DNA from: a virus
DNA: 60,630 bases
Direction: 5' to 3' (one strand)
Virus record (IMG/VR): IMGVR_UViG_3300046727_000269
Of this stretch, positions 27,726-44,577 are shown in pieces (position 1 is the stretch's first letter; the number at the start of each line of letters is the position of its first letter). The translations under genes and the position numbers were made by a program. The notes under the pieces were generated by a model that saw only the letters and a list, made by a program, of their open reading frames with translations, did no database searches and was not told the origin of the DNA.

Positions 27726-27726
27726 C

Positions 27727-28098: not shown

Positions 28099-30225
28099 TT
28101 AGTGCCTCGGCCAGAAGTACCCGTGCAGTCCCGCGACTACGTTCCCCACCCCCGCCGTCAGTGCCCCCGTGACGTTCGGTGCCGCGACGATGTACCGGAT
28201 CAGATCACCGGACCTGACTTGAAGCCCCCCGGCAATGGGTGACATGTTCTGTAGCGTGCCGATGCTCACCTCCATCAACCCACAGTCCCGCATGAAGCGG
28301 CCCGCAGATTCCAGCCGCCAAACAATGTCCCCAGAGCCCTCGACAAAGATTGGCACGGGGAACGCGGTGGGATCGGTAATGTACCCGTGGTACTGGCCCA
28401 GGATCACGCCATCGTAGCCTATGGGGACACGGAACTGGAATATCACGTTGTCACCCGAGGCCACCGTGGGTAACGGGATCGCCCCGGTAGGATTGAAGGC
28501 GATGGCTCCCTCGGGCGGTCCCATCGGCACTTCCTCGTGCTCGGAAAAGTTCCCGCCCCAGTCCCGCTCGTCAGTACAAAAACAGAACGGCTTCACCCCA
28601 CACTTGAGGAGTTCCCGGTTGATGAGCTTATAGAGGAGGTATTCTCGGCCTAAGCACGAATCAAAGTGGTTGAGGATGACGTGAATGAATCCTCTACCCC
28701 CCGTTGACGGTACTGGCGGGATGACGATAGAGCAATTTGCAGTTGCCGTTGCCCCGAGTGAATCAGTCGCTTGCACCGTGAAGGAGAAGGTGCCGGACAG
28801 TAATGGAATCCCCGTGATGATGCCGGTGGCGGGATCGAGGGTTAGGCCAGGTGGGAGAGAACCGGAAATGATGGCGTAGGTGTAAGGGGGCGTACCACCT
28901 GTCGCTACTACCGTCCCCGTGTAGAGGATGTTCAACGTGGCGGAACCGATGGGACACGTGACGATGACGGGGGCCACGACTCCTATGGATAAATGAAACT
29001 GCCCTTGATATATCTCCGTCCCCGCTTGAATTGGGAAAAGTCCAATCATTGCTCTGACGCCAAAACTAAGTTGGCGAACAGAGACAGAGTTGGGGGTGTT
29101 CTCCCCGTTAAGACCACCCGCTTGAGGCGGTGGCGTAACGGGGGGGTCCACCGCCTTGTCCCAGTAGACCGATTCCACCGCCCAAGGTCCTACCAACGCG
29201 GGGGACGTGGACTGGAGTACTTGATTCGGAGTATTCCCCGGCCCAGGCCCTTGCCACGTCCACATGGAGGTGAGAGTGAGGCCGTCTGGCGAAATGCAGA
29301 AGTCCGTCCAGAAAGTGTCCTCGTCCGCATTGATATCCGAGGCCACCACCACCGTTGCAAACACTGGCGGCGACACACTCATATCTGCCGTAAGCATGGT
29401 TGGTTGGATGGTGGAGGGGGTAGGGAAGAAGGGGAGGCACCAACCAATCTTGTTTTCCGCCGCTACAAATTTCCCCTGCGCGTTCCACCCTTGGCCGAGA
29501 TCGTAGCGATTGTCGTTCCAAGGGGTGGAGTAGGGGAACGCGACGGATTTTGCCGAGAACCCACCACCCGAGGTCCAGGTAGCCACGTAGTACTGGGCAT
29601 CCACCTGTGAGTCCCACGTCATCACCACCGTGTCGGCATTGTCAATCCCCATGAGGTTGACGAAGTTTGAAGCGGATAGACTGCCCGCCTGGAGTAGGTG
29701 AGGGGTGCCCCAGACTCCCGCTGAGGAACACGTTACCGCGAGTACGCTACCGGTGCCTGATGACGTATCCGTGTAGAATGCAACAAAGGTCCCCGTTGAG
29801 GTCCGTGCTAGAAGTTGGTTTGGTGCCGAGGCCCCCGCATTCGGCCCCCCCGTGGCAATCGAAGTCCACGTGTCGGTAGCCATGTTGAAACTGAAAATCG
29901 ACAGTGGGTTAGAAAACTTACCTACCCCTTGTTGCGTGAGGATGTAAAGGATATTGCCGCCAGACGACGGGTAGAAGCAGGAACTAAACCAGTCTTGGAT
30001 TCCCCCTGTTGGTGCTCCTGGGATGTCTTGTTCGGTGAAGGTCACTCCACTGTCAGTGGATTTGAAAACCCCGGTACGGATTGCTACCTGGGTAACGGCG
30101 TCGAAGACGGACAATACTTCGTAGATCGCGCCACCGCGCTCAAACGGGCCTTGGTTTCCGTCTCCTAGGTTGTACCCATAGATGATGTCCCCAGGCTGAA
30201 TGATGTGTGGTGTTGGTCCCGGCAT
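28099..30225 (-). CDS. Fibre/spike-like protein (708 aa): propeller-like N-terminus, Ig-like domain, C-terminal domain paralogous to 30955..31623
   Basis: Asp-box-like STDSGVTF; TGGTPPYTYAIISGSLPPGLTLDPATGIITGIP Ig-type repeat; C-terminal VPIGYDGV...FVEGSGDIVWRLESAGRFMRD...GYFWPRH matches the neighbouring 222-aa protein. Confidence 0.75.
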   Translation of the reverse strand: MPGPTPHIIQPGDIIYGYNLGDGNQGPFERGGAIYEVLSVFDAVTQVAIRTGVFKSTDSGVTFTEQDIPGAPTGGIQDWFSSCFYPSSGGNILYILTQQGVGKFSNPLSIFSFNMATDTWTSIATGGPNAGASAPNQLLARTSTGTFVAFYTDTSSGTGSVLAVTCSSAGVWGTPHLLQAGSLSASNFVNLMGIDNADTVVMTWDSQVDAQYYVATWTSGGGFSAKSVAFPYSTPWNDNRYDLGQGWNAQGKFVAAENKIGWCLPFFPTPSTIQPTMLTADMSVSPPVFATVVVASDINADEDTFWTDFCISPDGLTLTSMWTWQGPGPGNTPNQVLQSTSPALVGPWAVESVYWDKAVDPPVTPPPQAGGLNGENTPNSVSVRQLSFGVRAMIGLFPIQAGTEIYQGQFHLSIGVVAPVIVTCPIGSATLNILYTGTVVATGGTPPYTYAIISGSLPPGLTLDPATGIITGIPLLSGTFSFTVQATDSLGATATANCSIVIPPVPSTGGRGFIHVILNHFDSCLGREYLLYKLINRELLKCGVKPFCFCTDERDWGGNFSEHEEVPMGPPEGAIAFNPTGAIPLPTVASGDNVIFQFRVPIGYDGVILGQYHGYITDPTAFPVPIFVEGSGDIVWRLESAGRFMRDCGLMEVSIGTLQNMSPIAGGLQVRSGDLIRYIVAAPNVTGALTAGVGNVVAGLHGYFWPRH

Positions 30226-30954: not shown

Positions 30955-31623
30955 TCATCGAGGATATACCCATCCCGTGATGCTGACCACGATCTTACTC
31001 GTCGCGTTGATTCGTGCGTCGGCTCCGGGGGCGAAGGCGACGAAGAACTGAAGGATGTCCTCGGACCATACCCTAAGTCCGCCTCGTGGTACCGGGCTAG
31101 GTGACGTGAGACTGCCCAGGCTCGTCTTGATGTTCCCGTGGTCACGGAGGAAGCGGCCCGAGGCACTGAGCCGCCAGATGAGGTCACCGGACCCTTCCAC
31201 AAACCCCGTGGCGGTACCTCCAGCCCCCGGCAGAATCCCGCATACCACATCGGTAATCACACCATCGTATCCGACCGGCACCAACTCATTGCCCGATTGT
31301 GTGTTGAACGGGACCTGAGTATCAAGCCCGTTGAATCCCACCATCCCTGGGACTGCCAACAGGCCAATGGGCTTAAACCGTCTCCCCTCGGCGGGCATCG
31401 CGATCCAAGGGCGGGTAGTGTAGGGGGTGCGACCTCGGGGGCAACATATTTTACGTAATCCACCTCCCGCCACCATTTGGTTCCACAGCATCCGGTCAGA
31501 GTTCAGACAGGCATCGTACGAGTTGGGCCGTTGTGACGGCTTCTGGAGGCACGTGTTGATGATTACCGTGCTACGAGTTGTTTGGTACGCCGGTATTACC
31601 GCGTTGCCCTGTTGTGGGTCCAT
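30955..31623 (-). CDS. Virion-associated candidate (222 aa), paralog of the C-terminal domain of the 708-aa protein
   Basis: VPVGYDGVITD...FVEGSGDLIWRLSASGRFLRDHG...ITGWVYPR aligns with the C-terminus of 28099..30225. Confidence 0.65.
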   Translation of the reverse strand: MDPQQGNAVIPAYQTTRSTVIINTCLQKPSQRPNSYDACLNSDRMLWNQMVAGGGLRKICCPRGRTPYTTRPWIAMPAEGRRFKPIGLLAVPGMVGFNGLDTQVPFNTQSGNELVPVGYDGVITDVVCGILPGAGGTATGFVEGSGDLIWRLSASGRFLRDHGNIKTSLGSLTSPSPVPRGGLRVWSEDILQFFVAFAPGADARINATSKIVVSITGWVYPR

Positions 31624-32256
31624 CTATATCACCGCCTCTTCATACAACCCCGATTGCATCAGGAGTTGGCGCATCTGTTCCGGTGGTACGCACGGCTCGG
31701 CAATGAGGAGAGTGACTTGGCACGTCAAGGATTGACCAATGGGTGGCGTGCTCGTGTCCACGAGGCGATTGTAAATCTCAACGTCGATTAGACCCGGCTC
31801 TCCAATCAGTCCCGGTTGGGCGAACAGGAACGGGTTGCGGCGATTCTGACTACCATTCGCCGGACTCGCACAGGCGATTTGGTACGAGTAGATGTAGTCA
31901 GAGAAGAGGGCTGTTTCCGTACAGGCGTCGGTAACCTGCACATGGACATCTCCGTTGATGGTGCCCTGGACCAGGGAATCGTTGAGGGAGGCAGGGGCCG
32001 AGAAACAAATCCCCCAGAGGTATGATCCGGGGAGACAGTTCACTTGCCGCTCGATCTGAGTGAAGGGACCGATGGGGTTCTCGTTGTCGTCGGCGTCGGG
32101 GATGAGGTAGTGACGGCAACGGTACCCACGGGAGCGGCGGAGGACTTCCATTTGCGCGAGGGCACTGGCACGGTACGTCGTGCTGAGGTACAGCATACTC
32201 GCACTCAGTACGAATCCGTCGAGGATCGGGGGGTAGTCGATATTGGTCCCGCTCAT
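31624..32256 (-). CDS. Beta-rich structural candidate (210 aa)
   Basis: ORF track; abuts both neighbours (adjacent stop/start and ATGA overlap). Confidence 0.65.
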   Translation of the reverse strand: MSGTNIDYPPILDGFVLSASMLYLSTTYRASALAQMEVLRRSRGYRCRHYLIPDADDNENPIGPFTQIERQVNCLPGSYLWGICFSAPASLNDSLVQGTINGDVHVQVTDACTETALFSDYIYSYQIACASPANGSQNRRNPFLFAQPGLIGEPGLIDVEIYNRLVDTSTPPIGQSLTCQVTLLIAEPCVPPEQMRQLLMQSGLYEEAVI

Positions 32257-32402: not shown

Positions 32403-32431
32403 CACGGTGTTGTCACGGGCCTGTGTCACCC

Positions 32432-33286
32432 CTAGCACGGTATCCTCCGTACTCCGTGGAGCAGGAGTTGGAACGTCTGGGGGAGAACTGTCGGTGAAAA
32501 CAGTAGGCTCCAAATGTCGAAGTAGATGGCCCCATTCACGGGGAACAGGATCGGAGGGCACGGCCAGAAATTGAACTCACCAGAACTGGTTTGTGGGTTC
32601 AGATGGAAGAACATATTGGAGAGGACGGGACGGTTGCTCCTCGCCATTCGATTGTTGTCGTACAGGGTGACCTTGAACTGGGAGGACTGTTGGTTGTCTT
32701 GTAGTGCGAGTTCAATCCTGCGTAGCTCGAAATCGAAGTCCTCAACCTTGATCTGAATTTGCGTCGGCCCATTCACCACTCCCCCCGTGGTCGCGTAATT
32801 GTTGATGGAGAGGGTGTAGGGGATCGCGTACGGCTTCTCGTAATACTTGTAGGCGGACGGTACCGGGTCCGACACCGTGTTGGCCCGTCTCTTAGCTCCG
32901 GTGTAAACCATCTGGGACTTGTACAGAGTGGTCCCGGTATCCGTCCCCGCCACCACCAACGCCACCGTTTGGAGGTCTTGCCGGATGTAACTGTTGTCCG
33001 GGTACCAGAGTTCAGGAGTCACCACCATATTGGCGAACTGATTCGCCGCCGTGCCCAACGTCATGAAGTCGGAGGACCTGAACCTCCCTTGCCAGTCGTA
33101 GAACTTGAGGCCCTGGGCGATGGTCGAGAGGCCGGACCAATAACGGAGAAGGAAATCCCCGTCTACCACGTGAGGGCCGACTTGGAATAGCGTTTGCCCA
33201 TTCGCAATCCCACTTACATCCTGGGCATCAAACACGTACTGGTAGAACGTGTCGCCGAATCCCGTTGGTGTTGTGTAATCGTACAC
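32432..33286 (-). CDS. Two-unit jelly-roll-like protein (284 aa), candidate double-jelly-roll major capsid protein
   Basis: Two internal units (GDFLLRYW...KFYDWQGRF...ELWYPDNSYIRQDL and FDFELRRI...VTLYDNNRM...PILFPVNGAIYFDIW) resemble the single unit of 33294..33719. Confidence 0.6.
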   Translation of the reverse strand: MYDYTTPTGFGDTFYQYVFDAQDVSGIANGQTLFQVGPHVVDGDFLLRYWSGLSTIAQGLKFYDWQGRFRSSDFMTLGTAANQFANMVVTPELWYPDNSYIRQDLQTVALVVAGTDTGTTLYKSQMVYTGAKRRANTVSDPVPSAYKYYEKPYAIPYTLSINNYATTGGVVNGPTQIQIKVEDFDFELRRIELALQDNQQSSQFKVTLYDNNRMARSNRPVLSNMFFHLNPQTSSGEFNFWPCPPILFPVNGAIYFDIWSLLFSPTVLPQTFQLLLHGVRRIPC

Positions 33287-33293
33287 GGGGACT

Positions 33294-33719
33294 CTACGCT
33301 CCCTGGGCGACTTGGTAACGGTTCGCCCCGATGAAAAGGATCTGTCCAGTATTCGTCGCCACGCTCAAATCCTGGATATTCAGGTAGATCCTGCCGCCAG
33401 CGGGATAGAAAATCTCCGGGAACATGGGGAAGGGATCACCGGGGGAGTTGGGAAGGTTCGTGCTGAACGTCAACCCCGAACTCAGGTAGTACCCTTGCCC
33501 GTCTTGGAACTGCACGGCGAAGAGGCCAGTGGATTGAAACACGAGCCCTCTCCACACGAAGTCGGCTTCCGTGAAGATACTCACCACCTGCCCCTGTAAA
33601 AGTTGTGACGCCGTGAGGGAAATGTTGTACGTGTAGTTGAAAGGTACCTCGATGTACCCGACCCCCAAGTTGTCCCCCGCGATGCCTTGCACGGCGGGTG
33701 GTGCTATTGGATTCTGCAT
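33294..33719 (-). CDS. One-unit jelly-roll-like protein (141 aa), candidate penton or minor capsid protein
   Basis: ADFVWRGLVFQSTGLFAVQFQDGQGYYLSS...FPEIFYPAGGRIYLNIQDL; strong RBS TTAAGGAGCG before the ATG. Confidence 0.6.
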   Translation of the reverse strand: MQNPIAPPAVQGIAGDNLGVGYIEVPFNYTYNISLTASQLLQGQVVSIFTEADFVWRGLVFQSTGLFAVQFQDGQGYYLSSGLTFSTNLPNSPGDPFPMFPEIFYPAGGRIYLNIQDLSVATNTGQILFIGANRYQVAQGA

Positions 33720-33791: not shown

Positions 33792-33881
33792 GGCCGGAGT
33801 GCCGCCGCGTGGGAGGGATAAGGGGGACGCGAGCAACGCCCCAATTCCCCTGGGTAAGCAGCACCCCGGACCCATCGGACT

Positions 33882-33920
33882 CGCGGGGTGGAGGAACGGG
33901 TAAGGAACCCCACCCCCGCG
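33882..33920 (-). other. GC-rich hairpin downstream of the capsid-like gene (attenuator or terminator-like, no U tract)
   Basis: CGCGGGGTGG / CCACCCC(C)GCG arms, 10 bp with one bulge and a 17-nt loop; 34 nt after the stop of 33954..34598. Confidence 0.4.
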
Positions 33921-33953
33921 AGAACTCGCAACAACGAAAGAGGACCAGTATTC

Positions 33954-34598
33954 CTACTGGACGCCTCTCGCGTGTAGACCGTCGAGAATCACTTGCATGT
34001 TGAGACCAGTACCACCGCCCGATGTCGTGGTAAGGGTAACGCTGGTCCCTACCAACTGGCAATAGAACGACGCTTGGTTGTCAATCACGATGTTGATTCC
34101 CAACTCGTGCCGGTGCATCTTCCCCGGCATTCCGTTGGTAAGAGCGGTACTGGCCGAAGAGAACCCCGTCACGCCGCCGCCGACCGGATAGAAGATCAGA
34201 GGCGCACGGTTGTAGGATTTTTCGCCAATCCAGAACTCCAGAGCGAAGGACCGGAGCATGGTGTTGAGATCCGCGAGGAGGGTCCCCGCATCAAACCACA
34301 GTCCAATCCCCATTGCGGCGAAGGCTTGAGGGGCGTCCAACCGTTTTGCGGTTTGTACGTTGGTGTCCGCCAACGTCTTCCCCGTTTGATTGCCAGTGGT
34401 GAAAAACTGGGTCAAATTGGTGATGACTGCTCCCGCCGCCCAAGGTGCGTTTGTTGCGGGATTCCAGGAACGATCATACAACGGCTCGTGCTGGACATCC
34501 ATCGCGTTGGGCTGATACGTGGTGCCGGAAAATTGGTTTTGAATCCAATTCGCCAGTCCCAGTGCATCGGCCCCGCCAACTACTTGTGTGCTAGGCAT
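33954..34598 (-). CDS. Capsid-like beta-rich structural protein (214 aa)
   Basis: ORF track; followed by a strong hairpin, consistent with a highly expressed structural gene; FALEFWIGEKSYNRAPLIFYPVGGGVTG; no family assigned by eye. Confidence 0.6.
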   Translation of the reverse strand: MPSTQVVGGADALGLANWIQNQFSGTTYQPNAMDVQHEPLYDRSWNPATNAPWAAGAVITNLTQFFTTGNQTGKTLADTNVQTAKRLDAPQAFAAMGIGLWFDAGTLLADLNTMLRSFALEFWIGEKSYNRAPLIFYPVGGGVTGFSSASTALTNGMPGKMHRHELGINIVIDNQASFYCQLVGTSVTLTTTSGGGTGLNMQVILDGLHARGVQ

Positions 34599-34655
34599 AT
34601 ATTTGTGTTTTCATTTTCCTTTCTGAGATGAGCGTGGCAAAGGGCGAGTGCCCTA

Positions 34656-35669
34656 CTACCGCCTCCCTCCGAATGCCCCACGGAACGCGCCCATACCGGC
34701 ACCTGCCGAGATCGGGACCACGCCCATCTTAATGGGGTTCTGCGGGACGACGTAGGAACCGGGGATGATGTCGCCTACCCCGGAAAGAGCCAAGCGACCG
34801 GACAGGGTGGGCGGGGCAAACGCATTGAGCGCCGCACTCGCCGTCTGAGCCAAGCCACCGAGGAGCACCGCGTCGGCAAATGCACCGGGCGATACCTTGC
34901 GAGCGAGCATCCCGGCCACGAACGCCCCGGCCCCGGTAACGAGGACGGAAATGAAGCTGGACGTGCCGAACGTCGATAACAGCGATGCGGGAACGAGGGT
35001 GGGGAGATATTTTGTCGCCGCCACGCCCACGAGCACACCCCCCGTCATCATCAGAAGGTCTTTCCCACTGGACCTCCCGAAGATTGCGGGATTGTGTCGG
35101 CGGGAATAGTGCCGGTTATGACGGCGGCGAGGATTAGCCCGCCGACGATGCTGCCGATTCCCTGTCTTTCGTCGATAACCGAACGCCTTGGCCCACGCGG
35201 GTGGGGCATTGCGTCTCCGCCGTGCTACACGGCGCGGGTTGGTGGTACGACGACGATGATAATTCCGTTTTCGTCTTGCCATGTGACTCCTTTTCTTTCG
35301 TGGATTTATCGCGCCTAGTTCAATAAGCACGGGGTTGGAGACGCGGCTTCGGCGGTACGATTTCCGCTTGTTACGCGCCTTGGAACGGCGGCGGGGATTT
35401 GATGAGACTCCTAGTCGCCGTAACTCGGTTCGGAGCATCCCGACGATGCTCGATGATTTCTTAGTCGCCTTGCGTTTGCGCGTGTACCGGCGCTTGGATG
35501 TGGCGGTGCGCTTGCGGGGATTCTTTCGCGCCTTGGCCCGCTTCCGTTTGACGAAGTGGCCGAGACGGTTGCGGAAACGGCGCTTGGTGCCCGTGGCCCG
35601 CTTCCTCCGTACCTTGATCCGCTTCCGTCGTGGGTTCGCCACCCGGATTAACTTTCCTACTGTCGCCAT
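34656..35669 (-). CDS. Arg/Lys-rich NP-repeat protein with hydrophobic Gly/Ala-rich C-terminal half (337 aa)
   Basis: Nine xNPxx repeats (ANPRR, KNPRK, SNPRR, SNPVL, INPRK, TNPRR, ANPRR, HNPAI, QNPIK); the first ~200 aa are extremely basic; C-terminal TM-like segments and PGSYVVPQNP motif. Confidence 0.75.
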   Translation of the reverse strand: MATVGKLIRVANPRRKRIKVRRKRATGTKRRFRNRLGHFVKRKRAKARKNPRKRTATSKRRYTRKRKATKKSSSIVGMLRTELRRLGVSSNPRRRSKARNKRKSYRRSRVSNPVLIELGAINPRKKRSHMARRKRNYHRRRTTNPRRVARRRRNAPPAWAKAFGYRRKTGNRQHRRRANPRRRHNRHYSRRHNPAIFGRSSGKDLLMMTGGVLVGVAATKYLPTLVPASLLSTFGTSSFISVLVTGAGAFVAGMLARKVSPGAFADAVLLGGLAQTASAALNAFAPPTLSGRLALSGVGDIIPGSYVVPQNPIKMGVVPISAGAGMGAFRGAFGGRR

Positions 35670-37542: not shown

Positions 37543-38001
37543 TTACAGCTTCGGTGCTGCTTCCTCTCCTGCCTTCACCACTCCCGGACCAACCACAGGA
37601 GTAACCGGCACTCCCGCCGCCACCGCCGCGACATCCGCCGCCCTCCCTTTCACGGCGGTATTGTAGATGAGCCAATTGAACCCGTACGACTTCATAGCAC
37701 TCACCCCCGCGCTGTAAATGGCCGGTCCCGTCAACCCCGTGATCGTCAATGCCCCCAGGCTCGGGTCATAGTGGTAATGAATCCCCACCCCCGCGATCAA
37801 CGCGGCCAGCCACGATAACGCCCTGTTCAGCCCCGACGACTCCTGGGAGAAAGCCTTGAGCACGGGCCACTGACTGTTCTTCACCGCCTGGATGAGAGCA
37901 ACGGAAATGGCAGAGGTCGAGATTATCGCGGGCAAATCCGTCGATACCGCCATCGGGTTCTCCACCGCCGCCTGTGCCGCCGCTTGAAGTAATAGCATCA
38001 T
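37543..38001 (-). CDS. Membrane protein (152 aa)
   Basis: Start taken at ATG 38001 (MMLLLQAAAQ); several hydrophobic Ala/Gly-rich segments. Confidence 0.55.
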   Translation of the reverse strand: MMLLLQAAAQAAVENPMAVSTDLPAIISTSAISVALIQAVKNSQWPVLKAFSQESSGLNRALSWLAALIAGVGIHYHYDPSLGALTITGLTGPAIYSAGVSAMKSYGFNWLIYNTAVKGRAADVAAVAAGVPVTPVVGPGVVKAGEEAAPKL

Positions 38002-38036
38002 CCTAAAGTTGCTCCCACGCCCCCTTCCCCTTCCCC

Positions 38037-38258
38037 TTACCTGCCCCTCTCCCAAAATGGACGAGTGACATCGCCACCGCTCCCCGTGTAATTCAACTCA
38101 CGATTTGCAAACAGGAGGATGAGGATAATCAGCAACACCCCTACCGCCCACTTCGCCGGGGCGAAGGTAGGAAACGATCTATCGCACACGTAGAACAACC
38201 CCCACCCGAGGGCGGCGAGTACCGCGATGCCGATGATGATTTCAATGAGTTGGCCCAT
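38037..38258 (-). CDS. Small membrane protein (73 aa, two TM)
   Basis: Start ATG 38258 after TAAGGAGTTCAAC; LIEIIIGIAVLAALGWGLFYV and WAVGVLLIILILLF. Confidence 0.55.
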   Translation of the reverse strand: MGQLIEIIIGIAVLAALGWGLFYVCDRSFPTFAPAKWAVGVLLIILILLFANRELNYTGSGGDVTRPFWERGR

Positions 38259-38268
38259 GTTGAACTCC

Positions 38269-38739
38269 TTAGAACGCCTTCGCCGCCGCCCGGTACGCCC
38301 GTCTCCCTCTCCCCGCGTACGAGTGTTGCTCCCCACCTACGAACATGAACAGGGCCAGTGCCGCACCTGCCGCCCAGACTGGGACGCCAAAGAATGTCGA
38401 CTGCAACGCGGCCATATAGTTCCCAGCGGAAAGGTTCCCGGTAAAGGTCCCGTAGTCCGTGGTGAAGTCACCCAAGCCACGGATACCATTGATCTGGCCC
38501 CCGCCACATCCACCCCCACAGCCTCCCCCGCACCCGCACCCACTCACACCCTGACCAATCAGCTTCGTCTGTCCCCGCGTGTAATCCTTCACGGGATTCT
38601 GTGGGACTGGAAATGATCCGGGTAGAATCTCACTGATGCCGCGAATGTACTTCACCGGTTGCACGGGATTCTGCGGCACAACATAGAATCCGGGTAAGAG
38701 ATCCCCAAGCCCCGGTGCCGGATGATGACTGAGTTGCAT
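38269..38739 (-). CDS. Membrane protein (156 aa) with two PGxxxVPQNP motifs and a Gly/Cys-rich stretch
   Basis: GLGDLLPGFYVVPQNPVQ and SEILPGSFPVPQNPVK; GCGCGGGCGGGCGGG; TM FFGVPVWAAGAALALFMFVGG. Confidence 0.6.
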   Translation of the reverse strand: MQLSHHPAPGLGDLLPGFYVVPQNPVQPVKYIRGISEILPGSFPVPQNPVKDYTRGQTKLIGQGVSGCGCGGGCGGGCGGGQINGIRGLGDFTTDYGTFTGNLSAGNYMAALQSTFFGVPVWAAGAALALFMFVGGEQHSYAGRGRRAYRAAAKAF

Positions 38740-38756
38740 AATCTTTTTCCTCTCCC

Positions 38757-39221
38757 CTATTCCTTCGCCAGAAAAAACGCCCCGACCACCCCAGCCAAAA
38801 GCAGGGTTGTTGTCGAGAGCCCAAACAGGTTCGACGTGCTCGGGTTCGTCAGGGCCGCACTGGTGCTCCCGCTCGCCAAGTTAATCACGCCACCTTGCAA
38901 CATCACTCCGGGACACAGGGGCATCGTATTGTTCAGTGCATCCAGGGCGGAGATGATTTGCCCTCTCAAGTCCCCCGCTGGGAGTGCGTTTATTACGGTA
39001 GCGATCACACTCACGTTGATGTTGGTGGGGATGTACCCAGTAAGATTCGTCGTCACCGAGTTCACCGTCATCATCTGCCCCGCCCAGTTGTTCAGAGTGT
39101 TCTGGATGTCGGACTCGTACACCCCAGTACAATCCCCCGTGACGTTGAATGAGATTACCGTGCCGGGTTGGAGTACGTCCGTATCACTCATCCCGAGATT
39201 TCCCAGCCCGTGCAATCTCAT
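38757..39221 (-). CDS. C-terminally anchored membrane protein (154 aa)
   Basis: MRLHGLGNLG N-terminus; C-terminal TTTLLLAGVVGAFFLAKE. Confidence 0.6.
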   Translation of the reverse strand: MRLHGLGNLGMSDTDVLQPGTVISFNVTGDCTGVYESDIQNTLNNWAGQMMTVNSVTTNLTGYIPTNINVSVIATVINALPAGDLRGQIISALDALNNTMPLCPGVMLQGGVINLASGSTSAALTNPSTSNLFGLSTTTLLLAGVVGAFFLAKE

Positions 39222-39228
39222 CCCTTTC

Positions 39229-39555
39229 CTACCGTCTCCCCTTTAAAAGAAAGAACGCGAGTATCCCCCCTGCAACATAGAGGTACGTGTTGGGAATCCC
39301 CGCAATCAAACTGGACGTGGACGGAATTGGGAGACAGGCCAAATCGTTCGGGTCCATGTATTGCCCACTCGGACACGCGGCACTGATGTTAGGGGGACAA
39401 TACGTCTGCCCCGGTGCCAGTGGTCCCATCGACCCTTGCGGAATACAGGGAGGTGGGGCCGACGCCGTAGCGCACCCGGCAATGGTATCCCCCGTGATGG
39501 GATCGACCGCCCCCACCACACACGTCCCGTCCGTCGCCACCACTCCCATCCTCAT
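39229..39555 (-). CDS. Cys-rich C-terminally anchored membrane protein (108 aa)
   Basis: Start ATG 39555 (ATGA overlap); C-terminal YLYVAGGILAFFLL. Confidence 0.55.
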   Translation of the reverse strand: MRMGVVATDGTCVVGAVDPITGDTIAGCATASAPPPCIPQGSMGPLAPGQTYCPPNISAACPSGQYMDPNDLACLPIPSTSSLIAGIPNTYLYVAGGILAFFLLKGRR

Positions 39556-39752
39556 TTCTTTGCGGCTCCTAATGCCACCACGCCCGCCCCGACCAACCAG
39601 AACCACCAGGGAGTATCACAGGCGGTGGCACTGGTCCCGCTCACTCCCGTATCGACCCCACTTGCCTCCGCTGCCGTTTGCGTTGGCCCCGCCACGGTAA
39701 CGTAGGGCCTCGCCTGACAGTCCATCTGGTTAAACCAGCCCAGGCACATCAT
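39552..39752 (-). CDS. Small C-terminally anchored membrane protein (66 aa)
   Basis: C-terminal PWWFWLVGAGVVALGAAKK. Confidence 0.5.
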   Translation of the reverse strand: MMCLGWFNQMDCQARPYVTVAGPTQTAAEASGVDTGVSGTSATACDTPWWFWLVGAGVVALGAAKK

Positions 39753-40366
39753 TGGATTGTTTGACCTCCTACGGGACGGTTGCGGAAAACGGACGGGGCT
39801 CCGATCCGGGGCCGGTTGTTTGCGAGGCTACCGCCGAAACTCATGGAGGGGACTTGAGCCACCGTGTTGGCCGGAACCACGCCACGCAACCCACTCACCC
39901 CTACGTTGGGATTGGCCGGGTTAATCCCCGCCGCCGTCAGCGCAGAAAGGAACTGGTCCACGCTCATCCCCGGCATGGGGTCAACTCGGGCACCGAACGC
40001 GGCACCGAACTGTTGGCCGGTTAAAGCCGGTGGGTACAGTTGATTCCGGTAATAATCCCACTGGTCGGCATTCATACTCGTGACACCGCCCGCCGCCGTC
40101 AGGAGTTTGGTTCGTACGTCCGCCGTTGTGCTGGGGGCCGGTTGCGTGGACCCGCCTGGAGTCTGGGTCTGGGTCGTGACGGTGGTGGTGGCAGGGGCCG
40201 TGGATTGTGCCGCCCCACCAAACCACGTGTCCCACCAAGTCAGGGCTACCTGTTGCCCCGAGGCATTGAACGCGGCACCGGATGGCCCGTACCTCGTCAC
40301 GTACCAATACGCGGCACCCAGCCCCCCGACCACCAGTACCATCGTCATCATGTTGTCTTTTTTCAT
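39749..40366 (-). CDS. N-terminally anchored membrane protein (205 aa)
   Basis: MMTMVLVVGGLGAAYWYV TM; Thr/Pro/Gln-rich ectodomain. Confidence 0.6.
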   Translation of the reverse strand: MKKDNMMTMVLVVGGLGAAYWYVTRYGPSGAAFNASGQQVALTWWDTWFGGAAQSTAPATTTVTTQTQTPGGSTQPAPSTTADVRTKLLTAAGGVTSMNADQWDYYRNQLYPPALTGQQFGAAFGARVDPMPGMSVDQFLSALTAAGINPANPNVGVSGLRGVVPANTVAQVPSMSFGGSLANNRPRIGAPSVFRNRPVGGQTIQ

Positions 40367-40659
40367 TACTCGTGTCCCTTCTTCCCACCAAACATGAGGA
40401 AGGCCAGTCCCGCGAGAATCCCCGCCGCCAATAGGGGATTGTCATTCACCCACTGGTTGATCCCGGAACAGGAGGGGCCTACCACTACGGGGGTGCTATT
40501 GGTGATGGAGGGCATCGGGTTGAGCAGGGATGAGGGAGTAAGCCCCGGTTGCGGTGACGCCGTAAGAAGCTGGGAGGTCGCGGTCATGGACGGCATCGAC
40601 GAGGTAGTGGATACCGGCATCGAATCTGCGGGGGTCGAGATGTAAGAGAGTTCAGCCAT
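40366..40659 (-). CDS. C-terminally anchored Ser/Thr/Pro-rich membrane protein (97 aa)
   Basis: C-terminal PLLAAGILAGLAFLMFGG. Confidence 0.55.
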   Translation of the reverse strand: MAELSYISTPADSMPVSTTSSMPSMTATSQLLTASPQPGLTPSSLLNPMPSITNSTPVVVGPSCSGINQWVNDNPLLAAGILAGLAFLMFGGKKGHE

Positions 40660-40662
40660 ATC

Positions 40663-40974
40663 CTAGTTCTCCATCAACTTTCCAACAAAAAATCCGACAC
40701 CACCAAACACTACCGCCGCCCAACTCGGGTTGTGAATCATATCGTGAGGGCCACCAATCTCAGCACACAACGTCATTGGATTATCCGGTGGAGACTGACC
40801 AACGGGCAAAGTTATCTGTTGCCCGGTTTGAAGATTCTGCCACGCAATTGTGCCTTGTCCTCCAGCCGTAAGCAAAGACATTTGTGTCCAGTGCGTTCCA
40901 CTTGACGTAGTTCCACCACACATCAGCTTTGGGCCAACGAACGCACCGACCGCAGCTAAGATGAATGGCATCAT
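40663..40974 (-). CDS. Membrane protein (103 aa, TM at both ends)
   Basis: Start ATG 40974 (ATGA overlap); MMPFILAAVGAFVGPKL and AAVVFGGVGFFVGKL. Confidence 0.55.
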   Translation of the reverse strand: MMPFILAAVGAFVGPKLMCGGTTSSGTHWTQMSLLTAGGQGTIAWQNLQTGQQITLPVGQSPPDNPMTLCAEIGGPHDMIHNPSWAAVVFGGVGFFVGKLMEN

Positions 40975-41654
40975 TTCTTCTTCATCACCATCAGCAACAC
41001 GACGGCACCACCGGCCAGTGCTACCCACATTGGTATACCGACGAATGGGATTGGGTCAGTGAGCCAGCTCCAGCTATACGTCGCCGGTCCCGTGTTCGTA
41101 ATACTCGTACCGTTCGCCAGTGCCACACTCCCACCCTGAGTCTGGTTGTTCACGACCTGGGTACTCGTCACGGGAGTAGTGACCACGGGTGGAGCCAGTA
41201 CGTTGCCACCAGCTTGGTTTGTCGTCACCCCCGTCGTGTTGGGTGCCACGGTATTGAGCACATTCGGTGCCGGGACGTACGTGGGGGGAGCCACGATCTG
41301 TCCTGATTGAATCAGGTAGGCAGTATTCGCTACCGTGCTGTTGTACGCGGCGGTATATTGCGCCACGTAGGAACTGATGAGGGCAGAGACGGAATTGGGA
41401 TCACAAGGAGTAGGGCTCACGTCCGCGCACGCGTTGATGGCGGCACTCGTCAACGTCTCCTGTACAACTGCGGGAGTGGCCGCGTTGCCCTGCTCTACGG
41501 CAAACTGCAACCCGTTCATAAACGAGTTGAAGTAGGTGGTGATTTGCCCCGTCAAGTCGTACGCCCCGAGCCCGTGGACGCCGGTTGGTAATCCCGGCAC
41601 CGTCAGGGCGGGGACGATTCCGTTGAGGCGGGGGGAGAAGTCGGAAAGTCTCAT
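40971..41654 (-). CDS. C-terminally anchored protein (227 aa), MRLSDFSP N-terminus
   Basis: Start ATG 41654; shares GACTTCTCCCCC (DFSP) with the next gene upstream; C-terminal IPMWVALAGGAVVLLMVM. Confidence 0.6.
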   Translation of the reverse strand: MRLSDFSPRLNGIVPALTVPGLPTGVHGLGAYDLTGQITTYFNSFMNGLQFAVEQGNAATPAVVQETLTSAAINACADVSPTPCDPNSVSALISSYVAQYTAAYNSTVANTAYLIQSGQIVAPPTYVPAPNVLNTVAPNTTGVTTNQAGGNVLAPPVVTTPVTSTQVVNNQTQGGSVALANGTSITNTGPATYSWSWLTDPIPFVGIPMWVALAGGAVVLLMVMKKK

Positions 41655-41659
41655 GTGAT

Positions 41660-42478
41660 TTAATCGCCCCCCATCATCGTGAAGGCGAGCACCCCGCCCC
41701 CGATTAAAAGCAGTGGGAGTGGAAAGGAGGAAAGGAATCCACCCCCACTCGCACCTGTAGTCGTGGAACCGGATGCGGAACTTGATCCCGCCAACAGTGC
41801 CAACGCTTGCCCCGCCTCGGGTGGATCGGGGACGACGGTAGGATCGTTCGCAATGGGATCGCGGAGGTCGGCGAACGCATCGCACCCGGTACACAGGCCA
41901 CCGCCGACTTGTACTGCGTTGGGAGCATTGCAGCACCAGGAGGAGGCACCGCCTCTCTGCCGTTCACTGATGCACCGTTGACCAGCGGCACCCAACGAGG
42001 GATCACCACAGGCTTTTACCAGTGCCGTCCAACCTACATCGAAATTGTTCAACGCGGCCAACTGGAGGGACTTGTAGTGGACCGGGGCATTCATGTACTG
42101 GTTAAGATTCTGCTGCCAGTACGTTTGGAGTTGGTTGGCAATACTCGTTGCCGCCACACACGTCTGCCCGCACCCCCTGAAGAGGGAGGCGATACCGATA
42201 CCGATTGCCGCGAGGCCCACCACGATGGCTGCAATTGGTGCGGCGGGTCCGAACGCGGCGGAAATCATTCCCATGTGCGCGAGGCCGGTAAGAATGGTCC
42301 CAGTCATTGCCGCCCCCTGCATTGCTTCGGATGCGATGGTGGTGGAAGTGACATCGAGGCCGAGGGAACCTACACCAGTGCCCCGTGTACCCTTGGCCCG
42401 TGCGTAGGTACGCGGGGCGAATGCGCTGGGGATGAATGCGAGGGGGTGGCCCGTGGTGGGGGAGAAGTCGAGGCGCAT
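41660..42478 (-). CDS. Membrane protein (272 aa), MRLDFSP N-terminus, Cys-rich ectodomain
   Basis: Start ATG 42478; TM IAAIVVGLAAIGIGIASLF and C-terminal LLLIGGGVLAFTMMGG. Confidence 0.6.
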   Translation of the reverse strand: MRLDFSPTTGHPLAFIPSAFAPRTYARAKGTRGTGVGSLGLDVTSTTIASEAMQGAAMTGTILTGLAHMGMISAAFGPAAPIAAIVVGLAAIGIGIASLFRGCGQTCVAATSIANQLQTYWQQNLNQYMNAPVHYKSLQLAALNNFDVGWTALVKACGDPSLGAAGQRCISERQRGGASSWCCNAPNAVQVGGGLCTGCDAFADLRDPIANDPTVVPDPPEAGQALALLAGSSSASGSTTTGASGGGFLSSFPLPLLLIGGGVLAFTMMGGD

Positions 42479-42675
42479 TAGAATCTGATATCCTCGACTT
42501 GAAATGTCATCCCTAAAACGACTGGTACGATCACGCAAAGTACGAATCGCGGCACGTAAGAAAAGTGGGAACAAAAAGCATCGACGTAGTAGTAGTGGGA
42601 GTGAAGTTGTTGTCCTATGCGCGATAGGAATGGCAGTTGGCTACTGGCTTGGCAAACTTGGCAAACGGCCCTCAT
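42478..42675 (-). CDS. Small Cys-rich membrane protein (65 aa)
   Basis: ORF track; TAATG overlap with the downstream gene and 1-nt gap after the upstream mini-ORF. Confidence 0.45.
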   Translation of the reverse strand: MRAVCQVCQASSQLPFLSRIGQQLHSHYYYVDAFCSHFSYVPRFVLCVIVPVVLGMTFQVEDIRF

Positions 42676-42676
42676 T

Positions 42677-42763
42677 TTAGAATCCCGCTTCCTTCCGTGC
42701 GTACTTCTTCAGTCTCGACTTACTCTCAGCGGGCATCACCAAGTAGGAACCGTTGTAGGCCAT
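42677..42763 (-). CDS. Mini-ORF (28 aa, MAYNGSYLVMPAESKSRLKKYARKEAGF)
   Basis: Hand translation; GGAG RBS; fills the gap exactly; weak. Confidence 0.3.
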   Translation of the reverse strand: MAYNGSYLVMPAESKSRLKKYARKEAGF

Positions 42764-42771
42764 CGTCTCCG

Positions 42772-43380
42772 TTACCGTCCCCGGCTCATCATCATGAACG
42801 CGAGTCCCACCACCGCCACCATCATTAACGTGCTACTGTTGATCCCCCCGAAACTCCCGCTCCCAATCGGCGTCACGAAACTCCCTTGCGCCCCGCCCCC
42901 GGTATTTCCATAGATCCCCGGAAGGTTCTGGGTATTCCCCGTGGGCTGAGAATAAATCACATTCCCCTGTGGGTCCTTGTAATACGTCCCAGGGTTCTGT
43001 GCCGCCATGATCTTCGCCATGCTCGTGCTGGACACGTTGATGACGTTCGCCAGTGCATTCCAATTGAAGTCGGGGCTCCCGGATGGAATAACGGTAGGAA
43101 CAGTACCCCCGCCTCCCGCCCCCGGTGCCGCCCCGCCACTATCCATCGTGCCGAGGTACACGGAACCATCGGGGCACATTCCCCCGGCATCCACCTGGGC
43201 ATTCAAACAGTCCCCAATCCCCTGCACCCCTCTCACCCCGCCCCGACTCTGCATCCGGTCCACGCCACCCACGAGTAACCGTTGCGCCCCCCAGTCCACG
43301 CGGCGATACTGTCGAGGAATCATCAATTCAGCCGGTAGACTTCTCGCCCCCGGTGGCAGTGTCTGAGTAATGACGTTCAT
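42772..43380 (-). CDS. C-terminally anchored Gly-rich protein (202 aa)
   Basis: C-terminal STLMMVAVVGLAFMMMS; stop and start abut the neighbouring genes. Confidence 0.6.
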   Translation of the reverse strand: MNVITQTLPPGARSLPAELMIPRQYRRVDWGAQRLLVGGVDRMQSRGGVRGVQGIGDCLNAQVDAGGMCPDGSVYLGTMDSGGAAPGAGGGGTVPTVIPSGSPDFNWNALANVINVSSTSMAKIMAAQNPGTYYKDPQGNVIYSQPTGNTQNLPGIYGNTGGGAQGSFVTPIGSGSFGGINSSTLMMVAVVGLAFMMMSRGR

Positions 43381-43848
43381 CTAATCGTTCCTCCATTCCG
43401 GGAACACGCCGCCCAATTTCTCCACCATCTGAATCCGGGTGGCGTCGGGCATATTCGTCAGCCCGTTGATCTGGATGAAGCTCCCCACGTCGATGATGGT
43501 CTGCAACATTCCGTCCGGCGTGGGGAACGTCCCCGTGATGGTATAGATGCGCGGGTCCTCATCCCCGCCCGCGTTGAAGTATTGCAACTTGCAAAACGGT
43601 GGGTACGAGTGATTCAATCCCGTGTCCGCGATCTCAAGCACGGCCCGTTCCGCGTTATCAAACGTGAGGAGTTCCAAATACTCCACGAGATCGTTGCACT
43701 GGTGCTTGGTGGCGAATCCCAGCATTTCACGTAGGGGGAGTTGTGGCGTCCAGGGGAATTTCTGGTTGGGATCGAACGGGACGTACATCGCGTCCTCTTT
43801 CGTGGGACGAATCACTTGCTTGAGGCTTGCGGGTAAAGGGAGTGTCAT
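43381..43848 (-). CDS. Hypothetical soluble protein (155 aa)
   Basis: ORF track; stop and start abut the neighbouring genes. Confidence 0.6.
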   Translation of the reverse strand: MTLPLPASLKQVIRPTKEDAMYVPFDPNQKFPWTPQLPLREMLGFATKHQCNDLVEYLELLTFDNAERAVLEIADTGLNHSYPPFCKLQYFNAGGDEDPRIYTITGTFPTPDGMLQTIIDVGSFIQINGLTNMPDATRIQMVEKLGGVFPEWRND

Positions 43849-44577
43849 TTAACTGTGTGCCACCTTCCAAACTTGTTTCGCGCCCCACCAGATACCGAGG
43901 GCGAGTGCCGCCGTACCTACCGCGTTCCCCACGAGCCAAGCCAACCGATCCCACACGGGCCACTCTTTATACTTCCCGTATTGGTTGGGGACTTCCCACC
44001 CCGGATACTCGCCATGACTGGCATCAAGGGGGAGGCGTTCCACTTGGCCCGCGTCATTCACGGGGTACGCCACGACATACACGTGGGAGAACTGGGTAGG
44101 TACTCTTTCATCCGCCCCGACAGTCACAAAGGCGCACCCGATCCCATTCGCCTTCAATAACGCGGCCAAGTAGCACGAGAAGTCGTCACAGTCCCCTACC
44201 CCCTTGCCCTCGTCCACGTACCGGGCCATGTCGAGGGGCCGGATACTCGTCTCAATCACTTCCTCTTCGGGATATCCCCCGATCCCCGCCCCCGTCACCT
44301 CGTCCCGCTGGAATCGAATCCTGCCATTCTTCTTCCACGCGTGTTGATAGAGGGAGTAGGCGCGGGACTTCTCGGACCCCTCGCCTGCCAGTCCTACTGC
44401 CCTCGCCTTGAACCACGGGTCCGCACTGTCCTGGGCGGCACGCTCCAGCATGAGTGCCAACGTCTGCCCCACCTGGGTATCCGGGTCCCAGCTTAGGTTC
44501 TGAACCCGGTACTTCACCTCGCCCAATTGGGAATGGTACTGGGTGCCCTGTGCCCCGGCCTGAAATCCCAGTCTCAT
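43849..44577 (-). CDS. Transglutaminase-like cysteine protease-fold protein with C-terminal membrane anchor
   Basis: KGVGDCDDFSCYLAALLKANGI ... FSHVYVVAY ... LPLDASHG gives a Cys-His-Asp arrangement; C-terminal LVGNAVGTAALALGIWWG. Confidence 0.65.
   Translation of the reverse strand: MRLGFQAGAQGTQYHSQLGEVKYRVQNLSWDPDTQVGQTLALMLERAAQDSADPWFKARAVGLAGEGSEKSRAYSLYQHAWKKNGRIRFQRDEVTGAGIGGYPEEEVIETSIRPLDMARYVDEGKGVGDCDDFSCYLAALLKANGIGCAFVTVGADERVPTQFSHVYVVAYPVNDAGQVERLPLDASHGEYPGWEVPNQYGKYKEWPVWDRLAWLVGNAVGTAALALGIWWGAKQVWKVAHS

Follow-up and report, generated by a model that had tools for sequence, protein, structure and literature searches.

A conserved cassette of single and tandem jelly-roll units in a ~60-kb uncultured bacterial virus: a possible vertex or spike-base complex

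Among known bacterial viruses, those with jelly-roll capsids have small genomes, of about 9-45 kb, and sequence comparison no longer recognises the kinship of their diverged capsid barrels. In PRD1, the N-terminal domain of the spike protein P5 resembles the penton protein P31. Sulfolobus polyhedral virus 1 (SPV1), of the family Portogloboviridae, infects archaea and has a genome of 20 kb; it has a single-jelly-roll shell over a membrane, a basic protein that condenses its DNA, and no known packaging ATPase. Genomes of Preplasmiviricota are smaller than 50 kb (PMC11071308). In HCIV-1 and HHIV-2, the penton protein VP9 has one barrel and an N-terminal helix, and the spike VP16 consists of four jelly rolls crowning the penton (PMC6414509). 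An origin of double-barrel proteins by fusion of single-barrel genes has been argued from structures only (PMC8812541, PMC6414509). In the virus described here, a predicted one-barrel protein and both predicted barrels of a two-barrel protein are still recognisably homologous, and among its relatives a single gene or a pair of genes encodes the two barrels, or the barrels are fused to receptor-binding heads. Should these prove to be virion proteins, the question of fusion could be put to the test by phylogeny and expression.

The window, i.e., the whole 60,630-nucleotide stretch of virus record IMGVR_UViG_3300046727_000269, is a complete genome of ~60.5 kb with a 127-bp terminal overlap (features in Table 1). 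The open reading frames (ORFs) of p284, p141, and p214 are as an earlier sequence-only reading gave them, all on the minus strand. That reading recognised one repeat, occurring once in p141 and twice in p284, and the motifs it quoted lie where it placed them (p284 residues 43, 60, 91, 184, 205, and 244; p141 residues 52, 68, and 100). The repeat is far beyond chance. BLASTP of p141 against p284 as single sequences returns two separate alignments, one with the N half (E 6e-5) and one with the C half (E 1e-3). With family alignments of 71 p284 and 60 p141 relatives, hhalign matches p141 to the N half at E 1e-13 and to the C half at E 1.6e-8, and the two halves to each other at E 2.9e-11, each alignment spanning nearly all of the ~140-aa unit. 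When the three types of unit (u141, uN, and uC) are aligned jointly (p141 numbering), F54, P101, G131, and R134 are invariant, and R57, D73, Y105, I111, and F129 are nearly so. The resulting motif is [D]F-x2-R ... YD ... P-x3-YP-x2-G-x-I-x-D ... F-x-G-x-x-R. By these sequence comparisons p141, over its full length, is homologous to each of the adjoining p284 halves. C-terminal motifs picked out by eye (P-x-hFYP-x-GG and h-x-G-x-x-R) had suggested the same unit in p214, p210, p222, and p708. This was rejected: all-against-all hhalign of ortholog alignments does not link the unit to any of the four (E >= 0.03), and the only real link among the four themselves is between p222 and the C-terminus of p708 (E 6e-47).

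Table 1. Positions of the features discussed in the text
Feature	Position	Strand	Description
p283	1905..2756		283-aa P-loop ORF, unassigned
p708	28099..30225	-	N-terminal head, He_PIG Ig domain (residues 418-502), p222-like C-terminal domain
p222-like domain of p708	28105..28674	-	residues 518-707
p222	30955..31623	-	stand-alone copy of p708 C-terminal domain
p210	31624..32256	-	conserved cassette member
p284	32432..33286	-	284 aa, GTG start; tandem of two homologous ~140-aa units, predicted jelly rolls
uC	32435..32866	-	p284 residues 141-284, C-terminal unit
uN	32867..33286	-	p284 residues 1-140, N-terminal unit
p141	33294..33719	-	141 aa, one copy of the ~140-aa unit
Hairpin	33880..33923	-	GC-rich, 30 nt after p214 stop, about -29 kcal/mol
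p214	33954..34598	-	most conserved cassette protein; predicted N-terminal helix and beta-sandwich
p337	34656..35669	-	90 Lys/Arg vs 5 Asp/Glu; long basic N-terminal part, hydrophobic C-terminal third
Run of small proteins	37543..44577	-	p170, p99, p156, p154, p125, p205, p97, p121, p321, p304, p202, p242; one hydrophobic segment each, mostly at the extreme C-terminus

The AlphaFold2 model of p284 (pLDDT 89.6, pTM 0.87) has two all-beta domains of ~8 strands each, connected by a 12-residue linker. The prediction is thus of one polypeptide that forms two eight-stranded jelly rolls in succession, and p141, judged by its homology, would have the same fold. Foldseek returns PHM as the top match (E 6e-5) along with the tectivirus GC1 major capsid protein (MCP; E 5e-5), PM2 P2 (E 9.7e-5, prob 0.99), and PR772 P3 (E 3e-4); a Satyrvirus MCP, DUF2961 (4kq7), CBM22, and phage tail-fibre models are also matched. 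The best matches cover three of the four protein families known for the double-jelly-roll (DJR) fold (PMC8812541). Both the all-beta two-domain model and these matches bear out the earlier description of the unit as a jelly-roll-type beta-sandwich and of p284 as a tandem of two.

The sequence-only reading went further and took p284 for a candidate DJR major capsid protein and p141 for its penton. If so, the surviving similarity would come from a duplication that was recent or has diverged slowly. Two units in one chain, the single-unit paralogue next door, and the capsid proteins among the matches all speak for this reading, and p141 is plausible as a penton-type single jelly roll; such pentons have one jelly roll of ~120-150 aa and a gene beside those of the shell, and they sit as pentamers at the five-fold vertices. 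The structural comparison, however, supports it only in part. PM2 P2 and PR772 P3 are among the best matches, but Foldseek gives no global superposition of the whole p284 chain on any DJR capsid protein, a comparison that reflects how the two barrels are oriented to each other, on which the pseudo-hexagonal trimer of known capsid proteins rests. In its alignments of the monomer model, TM to every DJR protein is at most 0.27 (about 0.25) with an rmsd of 16-19 Å, despite the model pTM of 0.87 (PM2 P2: TMq 0.25, 16.6 Å; PR772 P3: TMq 0.24-0.25, about 19 Å). A helix after strands F/F' is found in DJR capsid proteins and DUF2961 but not in PNGase F (PMC8812541). By DSSP, the only helices in the p284 model are residues 53-56 and 223-226, and neither domain has one between strands F and G. 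Single sequences and family profiles of p284, p141, and the unit have no match to capsid families in Pfam, PHROGs, NCBIfam, or PDB sequences. Profiles of p284, p141, the merged unit, p214, and p210 likewise find nothing significant in the PDB, and weak matches to parvovirus VP2 (E 0.05-0.9) and FlgG (E 0.11) were taken as chance.

The arrangement of the two genes also bears on their roles. The Shine-Dalgarno sequence of p141 is the consensus AAGGAG, 8 nt before its ATG, and this ribosome-binding site is stronger than that of p284. A gap of 7 nt, with no signal in it, separates the p141 stop from the p284 start, which fits similar copy numbers. Such tight coupling, with the stronger site on p141, is odd for a penton and capsid protein, for which a ratio of 1:20-40 is a rough estimate in a 60-kb particle. 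Systematic use of weak start codons by p284 orthologues was considered and dropped, as their starts are mixed (ATG 7, GTG 4, other 3).

Family scans with Pfam, PHROGs, and NCBIfam, covering essentially all ORFs longer than 130 aa, identify a replication module, lysins, and several glycosyltransferases as well as one epimerase-methyltransferase. In the complete genome these scans find no terminase, portal, HK97 capsid, or tail protein, and no tape-measure or baseplate match; no FtsK/HerA packaging ATPase is found either. Only four ORFs in the genome have a Walker-A motif: two encode helicases, one is a chance match in a resolvase, and the fourth is p283. No large P-loop ORF is left without assignment as a terminase candidate. 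p283 was considered as the packaging ATPase but finds no support in that role; it sits among recombination genes and has no match in Pfam, PHROGs, NCBIfam, or PDB. By eye, p283 resembles Sak4/AAA_24. None of 12 relatives has a Walker-A ORF within 10 kb of the cassette. The genome encodes at least ten small membrane-anchored proteins. Those of the 37543..44577 run, of which p156, p205, and p97 are kept in relatives, are candidate virion membrane proteins, and p337, also kept, is a candidate DNA-condensing, membrane-anchored (protamine-like) protein. Because the tailed-phage hallmarks and the FtsK/HerA ATPase are missing while the membrane proteins and p337 are present, the virion is likely to be non-tailed and membrane-containing. 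The tail-less, membrane-rich context would also suit the DJR capsid reading, but the missing packaging ATPase tells against it, as most viruses with DJR capsids encode an FtsK/HerA type in their morphogenetic module. Many tailed phages have polymerases ~30% identical to the one encoded here, a likeness that we take to say nothing about virion type.

p214 has a structure prediction of moderate confidence (pLDDT 78.7). Its Foldseek matches are weak but all of them are jelly rolls (best E 0.09); those to 6h82_E (TMq 0.35, E 0.35) and 6oj0_Z (E 0.31) are not significant. The strong hairpin noted earlier after this gene is real, and its position is conserved: in nine of 12 related genomes, at least 93% of random windows from the same locus fold less well than the 100 nt past the p214 stop. 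It is the local hairpin alone that stands out, as folding of the whole p214-p141 spacer is unremarkable (z = -1.8), and simple scans for promoters and terminators do not exceed the shuffle expectation. The hairpin is a candidate attenuator or mRNA-stabilising 3' structure. The sequence-only reading had suspected p214 of being an abundant shell protein; with its conservation and its hairpin, we favour it over p284 as the major-shell candidate.

p284 relatives fall into 96 clusters at 90% identity, and at 50% the family, a metagenomic one, counts 373 representatives; p141 relatives form 124 clusters at 54-94% identity. One of the 28 collection matches is in IMG/VR. The family has no match in 50,697 GenBank phage records or in 185,579 reference bacterial and archaeal genomes, and megablast and tblastn against GenBank phages match neither the region nor p284. 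Neither a cultured member nor a description of the lineage in the literature was found. The family marks a widespread ~60-kb virus lineage largely missed by marker-based virus detection. The cassette order is p214-p141-p284-p210-p222-head protein, and p214-u141-[uN,uC]-p210-p222 is kept in all long related loci, distant clades included. p210 has no match in PDB, Pfam, or PHROGs. p222 matches a fucose-binding lectin marginally (33 residues, E 0.0025), which is no more than a lead. p708 is a candidate receptor-binding spike.

Within this conserved cassette, conservation is lower for p284 than for p214 or p141. Mean identity over nine genomes is 53% for p214, 50% for p141, and 38% for p284. L017 and L021 have tandem duplicate uN-uC genes with a ~120-aa insertion in the D'E' loop. 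In L029, where the contig stops 1.4 kb upstream of the cassette, the sole copy seen is a 745-aa propeller-linker-uN-uC protein (P0396), and its head is homologous to that of p708. L030 (viewed over +-10 kb only) and ten further representatives have a uN-only gene and an FG-GAP propeller fused to uC. The propeller heads on uN-uC or uC are 400-450 aa long. In L031, a plain uN-uC gene adjoins a split, head-bearing pair, and L007 has two p141-like genes. A split of p284 in L024 was not counted as a clean separation of units, since the break lies inside an inserted segment and could be a sequencing error. Whatever the fusion state, all genomes keep exactly three unit types, i.e., u141, uN, and uC. 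A head-p222 fusion is present in all six genomes with plain p284 and in none of the five with modified p284. Heads on p222 and heads or insertions on uN/uC are thus mutually exclusive, a pattern that may be partly phylogenetic as the genomes are not independent. Compared by sequence, heads are shuffled between two anchors, one of the p222 type and one of the uN/uC type. With its low identity, duplication, insertions, splitting, and propeller fusion in relatives, p284 behaves as a host-interaction (spike or vertex) protein and not as a major capsid protein.

We therefore propose, with a probability of roughly 0.4, that p141 and p284 form a vertex or spike-base complex of an undescribed ~60-kb, probably tail-less, membrane-containing phage whose shell is built by p214. 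Both proteins would derive from one ~140-aa jelly-roll unit by duplication, the halves of p284 by tandem duplication or fusion, and on the particle surface they would form one assembly. Its conserved, penton-like base would be p141. p284, its paralogue beside it, would be an anchoring platform for the receptor-binding head, as would p222; the head would be carried by the p222-type domain in this genome (p708) and by uC or the whole uN-uC in relatives. p214 would make up the bulk of the shell, and it could be produced in surplus relative to the genes downstream, its message ending or pausing at the conserved hairpin. In this proposal we infer presence in the virion, vertex position, stoichiometry, and the role of p214.

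Several observations weigh against a vertex role. True DJR capsid proteins are among the best p284 matches, with probabilities up to 0.99, and p214 is predicted at moderate confidence without a significant structural match. The D'E'-loop insertions also resemble the 'towers' of capsomers. The plain copies in L031 could be capsomers and its head-bearing copies special capsomers, and a plain p284 copy might sit elsewhere in the L029 and L030 genomes, for which the loci are partial. It is not obvious why one vertex would need two anchor systems, p141/p284 and p222/p708. The insertions and the plain L031 copy would also suit p284 as the DJR major capsid protein, a reading which we nevertheless regard as unlikely. 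Known DJR major capsid proteins make up trimeric capsomers and outnumber all other virion proteins; for p284 the indirect signs (conservation, head fusions, and gene order) point away from such a role. As a capsid protein p284 would be less conserved than both p214 and p141, and in L029 and the L030 clade, where the only copies seen bear propellers, each capsomer would have three bulky heads. The vertex or spike-base role is favoured because p284 is less conserved, duplicated, insertion-bearing, split, or propeller-headed in relatives; of the original proposal, the tandem jelly rolls, the DJR-fold matches, the tail-less membrane context, and a plausible penton in p141 are retained.

In a shell like that of Helvetiavirae, p141 and p284 would be co-major proteins of heteromeric pseudo-hexagonal capsomers, e.g., two p141 and two p284 giving six barrels. 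The two genes are tightly coupled, the small one ahead of the large one, and in this they match the consecutive capsid genes found in viruses whose capsids have two single-barrel proteins (PMC6414509, PMC6356626). The constancy of the three unit types fits, as does the location of uN and uC on separate polypeptides in the L030 clade and L031. If true, jelly-roll capsid genes that lie consecutively would have fused and split naturally within this family. We consider this quite unlikely: the head fusions and conservation tell against it as they do against the DJR capsid, there is no sequence match to the P23-77, HHIV-2, or HCIV-1 capsid chains in the PDB and no packaging ATPase, and copy number is not constant (L017 and L021 each have a second uN-uC gene, L007 a second p141-like gene). 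Moreover, p214 would have no role although it is the most conserved and is followed by the hairpin.

In fibre proteins the conserved anchor is usually N-terminal. It is improbable that p141 and p284, instead of belonging to the shell, are carbohydrate-binding or adhesin fibre modules of a very divergent tailed or other virus, or non-virion PHM/PNGase F-like proteins tied to the glycosylation genes: PHM entries top the Foldseek list, which includes CBM22, DUF2961, and tail-fibre models, fusions to FG-GAP or other propellers and Ig-like domains are typical of adhesins, the genome has its glycosyltransferases and epimerase-methyltransferase, and HK97 capsids and portals of divergent phages can evade Pfam and PHROGs, but the complete genome has neither a terminase candidate nor tail, tape-measure, or baseplate matches, p141 and p284 have no signal peptide or membrane segment, the conserved anchor is C-terminal, family genome sizes lie tightly at 55-67 kb as for a capsid-limited virus, and in the 71-sequence alignment of p284 the invariant residue types are P, E, D, Q, G, R, F, L, S, and C (including the C-terminal Cys), with one nearly invariant His (H228) and no Met, and hence no invariant His/Met for PHM-like copper.

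A wider proposal, a rather unlikely one, is that this uncultured, unclassified lineage of ~55-67-kb bacterial viruses builds icosahedral membrane particles from jelly-roll proteins without a packaging ATPase and condenses its DNA with a membrane-anchored protamine-like protein. The common origin of its capsid and vertex barrels would still be visible in sequence, and their separate, fused, and head-bearing forms would link single- and double-barrel virion proteins, independently of known Varidnaviria.

Among described proteins, the cellular DJR proteins PHM, PNGase F, and DUF2961 (PMC8812541) also have two consecutive jelly rolls, and like PNGase F, p284 is without helices after strands F/F'. 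They differ in TM (about 0.25), in the conserved metal-binding His or Met that p284 does not have, and in that p284 belongs to a conserved virus morphogenesis-like cassette and to a family absent from the 185,579 reference genomes. As for SPV1, p337 together with the missing ATPase may suggest assembly around condensed DNA in the same manner. Unlike in SPV1, p337 has a hydrophobic, membrane-anchor-like C-terminal part, and the sole link is the non-significant p214-6oj0_Z match.

Helvetiavirae, with two vertical single-barrel capsid proteins (VP16/VP17 of P23-77; VP7/VP4 of HCIV-1 and HHIV-2), share with this virus the consecutive small and large jelly-roll genes and an internal membrane with dedicated membrane proteins, predicted here. 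The single barrel with an N-terminal helix of their penton is the architecture predicted for p214. VP16/VP17 and VP7/VP4 are not among the Foldseek matches of p284, and the sequence searches of the PDB do not match them; the best structural match is the insignificant one of p214 to 6h82_E. The large protein here is two-barrelled, the ATPase is absent, and the lineage is a bacterial, soil-type one with a ~60-kb genome.

The PRD1/PM2 type (Bamfordvirae; MCP P3/P2, penton P31/P1, spike P5) is similar in its jelly-roll blocks, in a two-barrel protein adjoining a one-barrel protein, and in its many small virion membrane proteins, which are candidate ones here. Both also have a stand-alone base and a head-bearing protein that share a domain (p222 and p708 in this genome; u141 and uC-head in relatives). 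The genome here, however, is four to six times larger and has no FtsK/HerA ATPase, and neither a global structural match nor a profile match in Pfam, PHROGs, NCBIfam, or PDB sequences links the two. C-terminal instead of N-terminal is the place of the shared anchor domain, the barrels keep detectable sequence similarity, and the two-barrel protein is variable and, in relatives, head-bearing.

The ORFs p214, p141, and p284 (proteins of the window are named by length in amino acids) lie where the sequence-only reading had placed them, and p284 begins 7 nt past the p141 stop. The repeat which that reading had described, once in p141 and twice in p284, is real, and the motifs quoted for it are found at their residues. 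BLASTP gives two independent alignments between p141 and p284, at residues 42-133 (E = 6e-5) and 155-281 (E = 1e-3). When the family alignments are compared by hhalign, the N and C halves of p284 (uN and uC) match each other (E = 2.9e-11), and each matches p141 (E = 1e-13 for uN, 1.6e-8 for uC). Because these three pairings cover almost the full unit of ~140 aa, and F54, P101, G131, and R134 are invariant across the three unit types in the joint alignment, the repeat represents domain-level homology and not a short motif. All relatives gathered (96 clusters for p284, 124 for p141) are unnamed metagenomic proteins, and the p284, p141, and merged-unit profiles have no match in Pfam, PHROGs, NCBIfam, or PDB sequences. 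The number of unit-bearing genes varies among members of the lineage; related loci with tandem copies are included in the table.

Positions of features in the window and, where named, in related loci
Feature	Position	Strand	Description
p214	33954..34598	-	ORF
p141	33294..33719	-	ORF
p284	32432..33286	-	ORF, GTG start
Mini-ORF	34599-34626	-	seven codons, ATGAAAACACAAATATATGCCTAG
p337	34656-35669	-	
p156	38269-38739	-	
p242	43849-44577	-	
p717, p501, short-form p363	23457-27791	-	
Glycosyltransferase block	16054-23460	-	
HNH endonuclease	30200-30952	+	PHROG 374, E = 8e-58
p284-p210 gap	32257-32431		175 nt, non-coding
Hairpin in gap	32354-32371		terminator-like
Family A polymerase domain, 3'-5' exonuclease (UDG-like fusion)	54000-55439, 57769-58257, 58233-59747		genes ~2.8 kb apart
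DnaJ (J) domain protein	60085-60528	-	small, E = 1e-17
DnaJ counterpart, L031	1472-1921		
Terminal direct repeat	1-127, 60504-60630		exact, 127 bp
p141-like genes, L007	68-475, 495-926		tandem
p284-like genes, L017	3729-5938		tandem
p284-like genes, L021	10001-12543		tandem

AlphaFold2, run with a 71-sequence alignment, predicts for p284 two all-beta domains of ~8 strands each with a 12-residue linker between them (pLDDT 89.6, pTM 0.87). The only two helices are short (residues 53-56 and 223-226). In the PDB, Foldseek matches this model to many PHM entries (best E = 6.4e-5), PM2 capsid protein P2 (E = 9.7e-5, probability 0.99), PR772 P3 (E = 3.2e-4), and DUF2961 4kq7 (E = 4.9e-3), as well as to birnavirus VP2 and tandem carbohydrate-binding modules. 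Among viral models, the tectivirus GC1 MCP (E = 5.1e-5) and giant-virus capsid proteins are found, interspersed with tail-fibre models. The double-jelly-roll (DJR) fold comprises exactly four families: viral capsid proteins, DUF2961, PNGase F, and PHM (PMC8812541). Because the best matches fall among these families, p284 as modelled would belong to the DJR fold class. With PM2 P2 and PR772 P3 included, this agrees with the sequence-only reading, in which p284 is a candidate DJR major capsid protein and p141 a candidate single-jelly-roll penton. All TM-scores, however, are 0.27 or lower with rmsd of 16-19 A, implying that the predicted mutual orientation of the barrels fits no DJR family, and the model lacks the helix that capsid proteins have after each of strands F and F'. 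In the model the fold class is retained but the capsid-like arrangement is not, and we consider the DJR-capsid-plus-penton reading unlikely.

An exhaustive profile search collected 373 representatives at 50% identity, of which 323 have E <= 1e-10. None is found in 185,579 reference genomes or 50,697 GenBank phage records, IMG/VR holds only one member, and no description of the lineage was found in the literature. Lengths of related contigs cluster at 55-67 kb. The gene order p156-p611-p337-p214-p141-p284-p210-p222-head protein is kept in all long ones, distant clades included. Since counterparts of p222 and p708 (the head protein of the window) adjoin in relatives, the HNH gene that separates them on the opposite strand looks like a mobile insertion in the structural cassette. 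Counterparts of p284 and p210 abut or overlap in relatives; in the window a gap lies between them.

Identity averaged over nine genomes is 53% in p214, 50% in p141, and 37-39% in uN, uC, p210, and p222. The position of p284 is plastic. Six genomes have a plain p284 (276-298 aa). In L017 and L021 the gene is present twice in tandem, with ~120 aa inserted between strands D' and E'. The sole p284-type copy seen in L029 has 745 aa, consisting of a 450-aa head, a Pro/Ala linker, and uN-uC. L030 has a uN gene of 126 aa and, after it, a 570-aa fusion of an FG-GAP propeller with uC, an architecture found in 10 further representatives, and L031 has a plain copy plus a split, head-bearing pair. The L029 head and the N-terminal head of p708 are homologous (E = 2e-4, with a second collinear segment); at its C-terminus p708 carries a homologue of p222 (E = 6e-47). 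In the eleven scorable genomes, a head on a p222-type domain never occurs together with a head or insertion on uN/uC (6/6 vs 0/5), a pattern and not a statistic, as these genomes are mutually related. Given this exclusion and the shuffled heads, p284 and p222 look as if they can replace each other as anchors for receptor-binding heads.

The identical ends mark the window as a complete genome, 60,503 bp long, that was assembled as a circle. It encodes a family A DNA polymerase and, apart from it, an exonuclease/UDG-like protein, UvrD-like and DEAD_2 helicases, ParB, an ERCC4 nuclease, a resolvase, HNH and GIY-YIG endonucleases, an amidase endolysin, a lysozyme-like protein, several glycosyltransferases, and one epimerase-methyltransferase. 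The polymerase and exonuclease genes are separated by a GIY-YIG endonuclease and two ORFs on the plus strand, suggesting that mobile elements have split the polymerase. The glycosyltransferase block, which includes a methyltransferase and a 533-aa RmlD-like epimerase-methyltransferase fusion, has genes similar to some in distant relatives (L031) and may act in glycosylating virion proteins or the host surface. The lineage conserves the DnaJ-domain gene, which is co-chaperone-like.

Family scans of ORFs longer than ~130 aa found no terminase, portal, HK97-type capsid, tail protein, or FtsK/HerA ATPase. The Walker A motif occurs in only four ORFs, namely two helicases, the resolvase (a chance match), and a 283-aa ORF among recombination genes, and in none of the large unassigned proteins. 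Upstream of the cassette (37.5-44.6 kb), at least 10 small proteins each have one hydrophobic segment, which in most of them lies at the extreme C-terminal end. p337, encoded directly before p214, has 90 Lys/Arg vs 5 Asp/Glu, and its C-terminal third is hydrophobic. The lack of recognisable tail, terminase, and ATPase genes, the membrane proteins, and the basic p337 together suggest a particle that probably has no tail but a lipid membrane, and that is perhaps assembled around protein-condensed DNA. A short motif in the C-terminus of p337, GDIIPGSYVVPQNPIK, recurs in the N-terminus of p156 as GDLLPGFYVVPQNPVQ and again as LPGSFPVPQNPVK, and may be a docking peptide. p242 ends in a hydrophobic segment and has no family match; its GVGDCDDFSCYLAALL stretch resembles, by eye, the region around the catalytic Cys in transglutaminase-like proteases. 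Exported proteins are unusual beside phage structural genes. p717, p501, and the short form of p363 start with signal-peptide-like hydrophobic segments and are otherwise rich in Thr, Ser, Gly, and Asn; in relatives, p501-like genes lie downstream of spike genes.

We tentatively propose, with a probability of about 40%, that p141 and p284 are co-expressed jelly-roll paralogues that would make up the vertex or spike base of a phage with a membrane but no tail. In this model p222/p708 would be a second module built on the same principle, and p214 the main shell protein. That p141 and p284 instead build a heteromeric capsomer is more doubtful than the DJR capsid, and a role for them outside the shell is least probable of these readings; part of the probability goes to none of them.

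As for p214 as the shell protein, the strong hairpin noticed after its gene holds up: a stable hairpin lies 3' of p214, and in 9 of 12 genomes the sequence there folds better than at least 93% of same-locus random windows. Such hairpins often follow genes whose product is needed in excess. The mini-ORF, just past an AAGGA motif, overlaps the p214 start codon with its end and may couple or control p214 translation. The p214 model (pLDDT 78.7) has an N-terminal helix and a beta-sandwich, and its Foldseek matches, although non-significant, are all jelly rolls (TNF/C1q, HHIV-2 chains, SPV1, FLiP penton, D13). Because of these matches, and because the predicted helix-plus-barrel layout is that of the haloarchaeal penton VP9 (PMC6414509), p214 is a candidate for the major shell protein or a penton.
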